A DNA stretch of 64,000 nt from Escherichia phage pinkbiff. Position numbers and translations under genes: made by a program. The DNA lies in the sequence record MN850603.1. One strand, given 5' to 3'. Positions 36,593-37,379 of this stretch are shown here, piece after piece; within the stretch, counting starts at the first letter, position 1; each line of letters begins with the position of its first letter. The notes under the pieces are model-generated. The model searched no databases. It was not told the DNA's origin and saw only the letters and a list, made by a program, of their open reading frames with translations.

Positions 36593-36871
36593 TCAATCAA
36601 AAGTTACGTTTGTTACTGCCATTGCAGATTTGCATTTTACAGGGTCTACAACGTGATAAAGTACACTACAGTTACCTGTGCTGTCTGGCACAGGCTTTAC
36701 CCATTGCTGCTTGACAGTTGGTTCTCCTAAGTCTTTGCAGGAACCATCTGTATAATTATTTACCATCTCAAGTGCAATTGGCTCTGGAATATGACCACGT
36801 ATCATGTACATTTCACAACCATTGCCGCCTTCACTGAGTAATGGTAAAATCTCCCACTTTTCTTTAGCCAT
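36593..36871 (-). CDS. hypothetical protein (92 aa)
   Basis: ATG 36871; overlaps neighbours by a few nt. Confidence 0.5.
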   Translation of the reverse strand: MAKEKWEILPLLSEGGNGCEMYMIRGHIPEPIALEMVNNYTDGSCKDLGEPTVKQQWVKPVPDSTGNCSVLYHVVDPVKCKSAMAVTNVTFD

Positions 36872-37379
36872 TATAAGTTGCCCTATAAACTGTCTCGAAC
36901 TTCAACAGGAGAGATATTGCCAAATCTGTATAGTTGTTGTCAAGCACATCTGGCATATTATTTTTGATATATTTCTCTTGCTCTTCGTAGGTCATCTTAG
37001 GGGTAATTAAAAGACTATCCCCTTGCTTCTGGTTATCAAGTTTAGTCTGGATAAACCAGTTTGCACAGTGATGCTCACCACCCTTTGTAACAGGTTTGTG
37101 GTGTCCTAATGTGAAGGATTGACTACCTGTGTATCTGCAAAGTTTATTGAGTATTGTAATGGTGTTCTTCACAACAAAACATTCATACAGGTTATCTACG
37201 GTGTAGTGTGGGTAATACCGGAATAATGCTCTTTCACGGGAACTCTCACGATTCCAGAGAATCATGTGATTGGAGTTAGAAGGGTCGTATTGGTGGGAAT
37301 CAATGAACTCTTGACGTTCCTCAAAGCTGAGTCTTAGAACTGACATTGCAGCCGAACGTTTTAGGTTTGATAGATACAT
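36864..37379 (-). CDS. hypothetical protein with HNH-like His-rich motif (171 aa)
   Basis: G-H-H-K-P-V-T-K-G-G-E-H-H-C-A-N-W resembles an HNH/His-Me finger core; tentative. Confidence 0.45.
   Translation of the reverse strand: MYLSNLKRSAAMSVLRLSFEERQEFIDSHQYDPSNSNHMILWNRESSRERALFRYYPHYTVDNLYECFVVKNTITILNKLCRYTGSQSFTLGHHKPVTKGGEHHCANWFIQTKLDNQKQGDSLLITPKMTYEEQEKYIKNNMPDVLDNNYTDLAISLLLKFETVYRATYNG

Follow-up and report, generated by a model that had tools for sequence, protein, structure and literature searches.

Two Small Accessory Genes in Front of NARP1 in a Felix O1-Like Phage: A Predicted Divergent HNH-Superfamily Protein and an Orphan, Probably Outside the Pathway

Escherichia phage pinkbiff (MN850603.1) carries, in the stretch of 64,000 nucleotides analyzed here (the window), two small genes directly upstream of a Prs-like gene. 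A first-pass annotation had placed the Prs-like gene in a candidate NAD+ module, and proposed that the two small genes are either accessory factors of this module or unrelated passengers. The module is the known NARP1 system, experimentally defined as genes 79-80 of phage Bas63 (10.1101/2024.02.11.579819), and the two small genes are therefore those numbered 77 and 78 in that phage. The explanation that we favor, with somewhat better than even confidence, is that they are lineage-specific accessory genes of the Ounavirinae, standing at the front of the predicted NARP1 transcription unit and outside the pathway itself, the first coding for an HNH-superfamily protein and the second for an orphan. 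Of the two options initially put forward, it is thus the passengers that we prefer.

Two Genuine Genes Upstream of the Prs-Like Gene

Judged by the 3.5-kb region around the two genes, which is 92-95% identical to the Felixounavirus (Ounavirinae) genomes Salmonella phage Si3, VpaE1, and Felix O1, the window is from a Felixounavirus (Felix O1-like) phage. Both open reading frames (ORFs) lie on the minus strand, and their coordinates are just those first given, 36864-37379 (171 amino acids, aa) and 36593-36871 (92 aa), and the His-rich string quoted from the larger product (GHHKPVTKGGEHHCANW) covers its residues 92-108. The 171-aa gene corresponds to Felix O1 ORF125, Bas63 gene 77, SUSP1 agp073, and the phi92 gp200 family, and the 92-aa gene to Felix O1 ORF126, Bas63 gene 78, and SUSP1 agp074.

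The three genes had been described as tightly packed, with overlapping stops and starts. The tight packing is confirmed, and the overlap stands for one junction and is uncertain for the other. The stop of the 171-aa gene overlaps the start of the 92-aa gene by 8 nt (ATGGCTAA). The stop of the latter lies 11 nt upstream of the Prs-like ATG (36581), as annotated in other Felix O1-like records, and overlaps only an alternative in-frame TTG of the Prs-like gene (36596), so that a stop/start overlap is certain at the first junction only.

Pairwise comparisons with Felix O1, Moogle, and SUSP1 gave ratios of nonsynonymous to synonymous substitution (dN/dS) of 0.06-0.25 for both genes, at dS values up to more than 1, and the Prs-like gene falls in the same range; by this measure, both ORFs are under purifying selection. 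Each of the two proteins has a full-length match to a PHROG family, phrog_3500 for the 171-aa protein (E = 1e-90) and phrog_4726 for the 92-aa protein (E = 8e-58), both listed as "unknown function." In Felix O1, transcripts of ORF125 and ORF126 were found by reverse transcription PCR (RT-PCR) (PMC3185647). Because of the low dN/dS, the full-length PHROG matches, and these transcripts, the ORFs are more than chance reading frames: they are genuine, expressed genes.

A Predicted Cys-Less, Gly-His Variant of the HNH Fold

No useful direct family match for the 171-aa protein was obtained in Pfam, NCBIfam, or PADLOC scans of the protein and its homologs; across the family scans of both small proteins and their homologs, the sole match was a sub-threshold DUF7167 (17 bits). 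The only direct HNH hint was phrog_2214, "HNH endonuclease" (E = 4e-4), and at least one GenBank record already labels a phi92-type homolog "HNH endonuclease." A word-indexed protein search with the single sequence returned close relatives only, and the other lineages were reached with an alignment as query. The resulting family alignment of 21 sequences comprises homologs from the Ounavirinae, the Stephanstirmvirinae, and a T4-like clade. When 1.8 billion cluster representatives (50% identity) were searched exhaustively with HMMER, just 22 clusters were recovered at E <= 1e-3, so the family is a narrow one. Five of the seven proteins in the weak tail of this search (E 5e-5 to 1e-3) carry or approach the Pfam HNH domain.

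Profile comparison by hhalign aligned the family with P0081, a Pfam HNH protein (45.6 bits), at 96.3% probability (E = 1.7e-9) and with P0079 at 96.4%; the match to P0077, a repeat protein with degenerate HNH units, was weak (9.5%). In the P0081 alignment, the canonical Asp-His is matched by G92-H93 and the GG by G100-G101, N107 takes the place of the structural Asn, and N116 that of the Asn in the helix. Opposite the four cysteines that bind zinc in P0081, the 171-aa family has L/Y/E/C and T/K/L/D, and none of these positions holds a conserved Cys. A set of 22 diverse members shows no variation at H93, G100, G101, or N107 and very little at H103 and N116 (N116 kept in at least 90%), so the His-Asn-Asn triad is conserved; G92, which precedes the catalytic His, is invariant in the 21-sequence core family. 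The divergent proteins P0072, P0075, and P0076 keep Asp-His and also share a C-terminal "MTW..Q..YI" helix with the family.

Structure prediction, which had been proposed as a check, yielded a confident AlphaFold2 model of the 171-aa protein, with a predicted local distance difference test score (pLDDT) of 91 and a predicted template modeling score (pTM) of 0.87. The model has strands at 89-93 and 108-112, a helix at 113-119, and flanking helices. Model, alignment, and conservation together place a putative beta-beta-alpha core at codons 89-119 (37023-37115, minus strand), with H93 at the catalytic position, GG-x-H103, the structural N107, and the helix N116. In the overall layout, an HNH core (residues ~46-127) stands between N-terminal (1-45) and C-terminal (128-171) helical extensions, which hold conserved residues of their own (R22, Y31, K128, Q134). 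HNH nucleases make up five of the top six matches of the model in a Foldseek search of the PDB (Gme HNH and Cas9 HNH domains), with ScoMcrA lower down. In a viral structure library, the matches beyond the family itself were mostly annotated HNH endonucleases (E 0.01-0.5), the best annotated one being Aeh1 HNH (E = 0.011, TM score 0.54).

The HNH-like character first read from the His-rich motif is thus borne out by the 96% hhalign matches, the beta-beta-alpha core of the model, and the HNH nucleases at the top of the fold search. On sequence and model, we assign the 171-aa protein to a Cys-less, Gly-His variant of the HNH (beta-beta-alpha-metal) fold, as a narrow, unannotated branch of it. In a separate comparison of the family profile with PDB sequences, the nominally significant matches were designed Staphylococcus protein A repeat proteins; we judged them spurious because a single repeat scores E 4-20 and the overall value adds the repeats together.

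One homolog is a fusion, and a second may be. In the metagenome contig protein P0002, a DUF7390 ORF runs on in frame into the 171-aa ORF, for a product of 259 aa. A 261-aa protein of Escherichia phage VpaE1_ev78 (A0A653G1G4) spans the whole 171-aa model (TM score 0.97) and may be a DUF7390 fusion of the same kind.

Distribution of the 171-aa Family and Its Relation to NARP1

The 171-aa family was found in 428 phage records, at full length in 399 of them. Nearly all genera named in this tally have enterobacterial hosts, and none is of Pseudomonas, Vibrio, or Mycobacterium. In ~250 Ounavirinae records, and likewise in two other phage groups, the gene keeps a fixed, syntenic place, its position being constant in the records examined. 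In the Stephanstirmvirinae (Phapecoctavirus, Justusliebigvirus, and Tr1-like phages), the homolog lies upstream of a gene for a UvrD/Rep-family helicase, usually directly and otherwise one ORF away (loci L003 4968-7084, L006 4983-7345, L017 1280-3665, and L004 4983-8759), an arrangement that suggests a possible nuclease-helicase functional pair. The helicase next to the HNH-like homolog contains an intein in Bas62. In the T4-like clade (Ci1, Cronobacter S13, LPCS28, and metagenomic contigs), the homolog is found 1.2-1.9 kb downstream of a NadV-type NAMPT (loci L005 1744-5453, L009 4794-8492, L010 4702-8495, and L016 1-7558), and contig L016 also contains NMNAT-Nudix (NatV), the second enzyme of NARP2. 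All homolog loci are within ~5 kb of nrdD, nrdG, or other nucleotide-metabolism genes.

In NARP1, ADP-ribose (ADPR) is pyrophosphorylated by Adps and then joined to nicotinamide by Namat (10.1101/2024.02.11.579819). Homologs of Adps occur in 1125 phage records, with Pseudomonas (194), Vibrio (164), and Mycobacterium (71) as the main groups outside enterobacterial hosts, and most NARP1-bearing phage groups are without the 171-aa family. Conserved gene neighborhood had been named beforehand as the test of an accessory role, and we found the 171-aa homolog adjoining Adps and Namat in the Ounavirinae only, divergent members included. Justusliebigvirus holds both NARP1 and a homolog, ~70 kb apart: NARP1 is at 47.8-50.5 kb and the homolog at 127.3 kb in PHB05, at 132.5 and 58.1 kb in ESCO9, and at 140.5 and 69.5 kb in alia, respectively.

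Published experiments point the same way. Purified Adps and Namat suffice for NAD+ synthesis (10.1101/2024.02.11.579819), and a knock-in of these two genes is reported in the literature to give counter-defense. Bas63 lacking genes 79-80 is sensitized and loses counter-defense despite the presence of genes 77-78 (10.1101/2024.02.11.579819). In SUSP1, CRISPRi-ART knockdown scored agp073 and agp074 as "Not Fit," and the Adps and Namat genes received the same score; the host had no NAD+-depleting defense (PMC11879866, supplementary file 16). Both small genes are dispensable under laboratory conditions. The suggestion that they are accessory factors of the NAD+ module finds no support, as the linkage is not conserved outside one subfamily; for the most part, we see no functional link between the two genes and NARP1.

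The 92-aa Protein and Its Slot

Relatives of the 92-aa protein were detected in Felixounavirus, Mooglevirus, and Suspvirus only, by tblastn and by a large protein search. It had no family match in Pfam, NCBIfam, or PADLOC scans, and its profile retrieved from the PDB only ribosomal protein S6 (E = 0.46, not significant). The AlphaFold2 model, built on seven sequences, is unreliable, with no confident fold (pLDDT 53). The protein is small and acidic, and its C-terminal half is strongly conserved (KPVPD.TGNCSV.YH).

The ORF that follows the HNH-like gene varies between lineages: it codes for a Cys-rich 98-aa product in Kolesnikvirus, 44 aa in contig L008, 115 aa in contig L015, and 73-76 aa in the T4-like clade, and Phapecoctavirus has no small ORF there. 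Compared with one another, the small downstream ORFs of different lineages showed no homology. In Erwinia phage Roscha1 (Kolesnikvirus; L002 5479-5775), the 98-aa ORF that takes the place of the 92-aa gene contains CxxC...CxCC and is possibly a zinc ribbon.

In Salmonella phage S19cd (Felixounavirus, MZ150758.1; L007 3109-4091), a 240-aa N6/N4 DNA methylase (PF01555) occupies the slot. It displaces the 171-aa gene at codons 39-171 and the 92-aa gene at codons 1-58, leaving a 58-aa remnant ORF and intact Adps and Namat. When the 92-aa protein was searched by tblastn, GEP101 gave the same partial match as S19cd, and metagenomes repeatedly contain remnants of similar kind, 58 aa long (P0028-P0032). 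By these comparisons, the two-gene site behaves as an exchangeable slot for accessory genes.

The Predicted Transcription Unit

Directly upstream of the 171-aa gene lies a hairpin with a T-run that resembles an intrinsic terminator (37388-37419, minus strand; 9 bp, -12.4 kcal/mol, z = -3.2). It is terminator t124 of Felix O1 (PMC3185647, Table 2); the Moogle annotation has a terminator at the same place, and Roscha1 has a hairpin of other sequence at the matching position. A second terminator-like hairpin, just after the NAMPT-like gene (33369-33392, minus strand; 10 bp, -16.6 kcal/mol, z = -5.0), would close the unit. Between the two, a terminator scan gave a single weak site that lacks a T-rich tail and is probably a chance match, and an Rfam scan of 33000-38500 returned no RNA family at the locus. 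By RT-PCR, all Felix O1 transcripts from ORF124 to ORF130 are highest at 25 min, which puts the five genes of the unit in one temporal class (PMC3185647). Our literature search for a transcriptome found nothing.

The first-pass annotation had considered the small genes probably co-transcribed with the NAD+ genes, and the bracketing hairpins, the lack of a convincing terminator between them, and the shared temporal class agree with this. Our best prediction is a unit of five genes, in the order 171-aa gene, 92-aa gene, Adps, a homing endonuclease, and Namat, whose co-transcription is plausible because conserved terminator hairpins bracket it.

The hairpin is directly adjoined by a match to a sigma-70 promoter, TTGAAA-17-TACTAT (37420-37448, minus strand), which is a consensus match only; across genera its -10 element reads TACTAT, TATGCT, or TATGAT, keeping the form TAnnnT. 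A transcript from this promoter-like site would start within the 5' hairpin arm and would therefore escape termination, so that the terminator/promoter overlap (37388-37448) may possibly insulate the unit from upstream transcription. In the deletion that created the P0002 fusion (window ~37380-37520), the upstream DUF7390 gene lost its 3' end, and the promoter-like site and the 5' hairpin arm went with it.

Proposed Role and Competing Explanations

We propose that the 171-aa protein, as a product of the middle phase of infection, would be a small, stand-alone enzyme of the HNH fold that nicks or cuts DNA in a divalent-metal-dependent manner. Its substrate would be host DNA or replicating DNA, including replication and recombination intermediates. 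It would act in the setting of a nucleotide-metabolism and DNA-transaction cluster, represented by nrdD/nrdG in the Ounavirinae and T4-like phages and by the UvrD helicase in the Stephanstirmvirinae. A DNA-cutting role fits these neighbors (ribonucleotide reductases, UvrD helicase) and the dispensability of the gene in the laboratory; in the literature searched, we found nothing relevant on whether Felix O1-like phages degrade host DNA. The 92-aa protein would be a translationally coupled orphan, with a possible regulatory or partner role.

Several observations speak against parts of this proposal. The window protein and eight homologs have no match to PF01844, PF13392, or PF14279 at E <= 0.1, and the E-values of the PDB Foldseek matches (0.4-3) are not significant. 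Co-transcription is deduced from consensus patterns and coarse RT-PCR timing. In T4-like phages, the homolog 1.2-1.9 kb from NadV is another and independent case of nearness to NAD+ salvage genes, one that common descent with the Ounavirinae does not explain; proximity of this kind is thus seen in two of three lineages, and to regard the genes as passengers is to treat the T4-like case as coincidence. All loci lie near nrdD/nrdG or nucleotide-metabolism genes, so a shared "nucleotide/DNA metabolism neighborhood" explains the pattern at least as well. Finally, the position just ahead of the catalytic His, which in canonical HNH enzymes is a metal ligand (acidic or His), is a Gly here, and the 171-aa protein could therefore be catalytically dead or altered in substrate. 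DRGH-type beta-beta-alpha-metal nucleases such as Serratia nuclease and EndoG are active with a Gly before the catalytic His, their metal being held by a single Asn, and the G92 substitution is therefore compatible with activity.

HNH homing endonucleases abound in the window and its relatives (Felix O1 has six copies), and the 171-aa gene could be a domesticated or decaying remnant of one, without catalytic role, retained for DNA binding or structure or drifting neutrally. The loss of the Asp before the catalytic His and of the zinc-binding cysteines, the weak phrog_2214 match, and the non-essential nature of the gene would fit such an origin. We consider it unlikely, though not negligibly so, because purifying selection is strong (dN/dS 0.06-0.25 at dS >1), the syntenic position in the Ounavirinae and two other groups is not sporadic, and H93, N107, and N116 are kept at ~20-30% identity. 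Moreover, Pfam scans of the protein and eight homologs detected no DNA-binding module typical of homing enzymes (AP2, NUMOD, or IENR-type), and Gly-His is also that of active DRGH-type nucleases. It is quite unlikely, in our estimation, that the two genes form a functional pair, either an HNH nuclease with a small regulator or inhibitor in the style of colicin DNases and their immunity proteins, or a counter-defense pair in an anti-defense island with NARP1. The 8-nt overlap implies translational coupling, an anti-restriction-type methylase takes the place of both genes at once, and the 92-aa protein is small and acidic. An overlapping small ORF also follows the homolog in Kolesnikvirus, contig L008, and T4-like carriers, and these ORFs are unrelated between lineages, as fast-evolving partners might be. 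However, overlapping small ORFs are the norm in compact genomes, which makes this a weak pattern, Phapecoctavirus, Tr1, and L017 have the helicase gene directly after the homolog without a small partner, and the 92-aa model is unreliable. A Pfam scan left rIIA/rIIB unconfirmed in the large downstream ORFs, and we therefore make no claim of an anti-defense island from them.

A role for one or both proteins in NAD+ reconstitution, comparable to Adpp or RyDEP, would consist in converting a defense-made ADPR derivative or ADP-ribosylated nucleic acid to ADPR for Adps. It would account for the predicted operon shared with Adps and Namat across the Ounavirinae, for the NadV of a NARP2-type pathway near the homolog in Ci1/S13-like T4 phages and related contigs, and for the dispensability of both genes, like NARP1, in the absence of a defense system; the gain of accessory enzymes is also documented for NARP1 operons. 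We hold it to be very unlikely, since the family is missing from most NARP1-bearing groups and lies ~70 kb from NARP1 in Justusliebigvirus, S19cd exchanged the genes for a methylase and kept NARP1, Adps and Namat suffice in vitro and in vivo, the 92-aa gene is limited to three genera, and we know of no ADPR-processing member of the HNH fold. Hardly any weight can be given to a bolder version, in which the 171-aa protein is no DNA nuclease but a repurposed phosphodiesterase recurrently placed near NAD+ salvage genes (NARP1 in the Ounavirinae, NadV in S13/Ci1-like T4 phages), freeing ADPR or removing ADP-ribose adducts from defense-generated molecules, with the changing small ORF as its partner. 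If true, this would be a third kind of NARP accessory enzyme.

Under the passenger explanation that we favor, the locus is ordinary phage accessory content: an unannotated subfamily of a well-known nuclease fold and a genus-group-restricted orphan, beside a characterized pathway. It provides a fold-level annotation for a "hypothetical protein" family in hundreds of genomes of Felix O1-like, phi92/rV5-like, and some T4-like therapeutic phages, and flags the site as a replaceable accessory-gene slot, with a DNA methylase in some phages. Bas63 genes 77-78, which flank NARP1 in its model phage, are probably bystanders, and the understanding of NAD+ reconstitution is unchanged. The two genes would gain in importance only if the repeated nearness to NAD+ salvage genes turned out to be functional.

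Gene Neighborhood

Read along the minus strand, the genes are nrdD (interrupted), nrdG, three small ORFs, the 171-aa gene, the 92-aa gene, the Prs-like gene, an HNH_3/AP2 homing endonuclease, and the NAMPT-like gene, an order that matches Felix O1 ORF125-129 and Bas63 genes 77-80. The Prs-like gene (35700-36581, minus strand), homologous to Bas63 gene 79, is that of the Adps enzyme of NARP1 (10.1101/2024.02.11.579819), and the NAMPT-like gene (33404-35185, minus strand), homologous to Bas63 gene 80, is that of the Namat enzyme. Between them, domain matches to HNH_3 and AP2 identify the homing endonuclease (35200-35691, minus strand). It is found in Felix O1, Moogle, and SUSP1 and is absent in Bas63, where the gap between Adps and Namat is 45 nt; it is thus a presence/absence polymorphism within a functional counter-defense operon.

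The nrdD gene (40102-42988, minus strand) is in two parts, the N-terminal one an ORF of 399 aa (41789-42988) and the C-terminal one an ORF of 288 aa (40102-40968). In the gap of ~820 bp are an ORF for an HNH-type homing endonuclease (41212-41676) and, below threshold, a match to a Group I intron (41099-41279; Rfam RF00028, 33 bits, E = 2e-6). The gene is uninterrupted in Felix O1 and annotated as a two-piece join in Bas63, and the interruption in the window is probably a mobile group I intron.

Comparison With Known Systems

Small genes in or beside Adps/Namat operons are known from some phages: the NARP1 add-ons Adpp, a Macro-domain ADPR-1P phosphatase, and RyDEP, a RyR-domain cyclic ADPR (cADPR) glycosidase, resemble the window genes in size and placement. 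Their folds are unrelated to those of the window proteins, neither of which has a Macro or RyR domain in Pfam scans, and their genes recur with NARP1 in unrelated phages, whereas the two window genes do not. Free-standing homing endonucleases are sporadically present and carry an appended DNA-binding module, neither of which is seen in the 171-aa gene. A functional analogy for the proposed role may be T4 denA (endonuclease II), a small, non-essential nuclease gene beside nrdA/nrdB whose product breaks down host DNA; its fold is GIY-YIG rather than HNH, and no homology is implied. DRGH-type nucleases differ from the 171-aa protein in fold context and size, and none was matched in our sequence and fold searches of the PDB.

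The closest likeness is to the HNH superfamily itself (PF01844/PF14279; His-Me finger), as in Geobacter Gme HNH (4H9D), Cas9 HNH, and ScoMcrA. With these, the 171-aa protein would have in common the beta-beta-alpha core, a His that ends strand 1 and is followed by x-x-Pro and GG, the structural Asn, and a helix Asn nine residues later. Unlike them, it is without the Asp/His before the catalytic His and both CxxC zinc-binding pairs, a zinc site that is a trait of many, not all, HNH proteins, and it has additional N- and C-terminal helical segments and no direct Pfam match. A group of longer, Cys-less "D-H ... GG-x-H ... N ... H-N" HNH proteins (P0075, P0076) likewise lacks the zinc-binding cysteines, and shares the GG-x-H loop and the "M-T-W-x-x-Q-x-x-Y-I" helix. 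They differ in keeping the canonical Asp-His and in having 110-160 extra N-terminal residues, and match the family only at E 5e-5 to 7e-5; the Aeh1 and nt-1 phage proteins among the Foldseek matches are probably similar to them.

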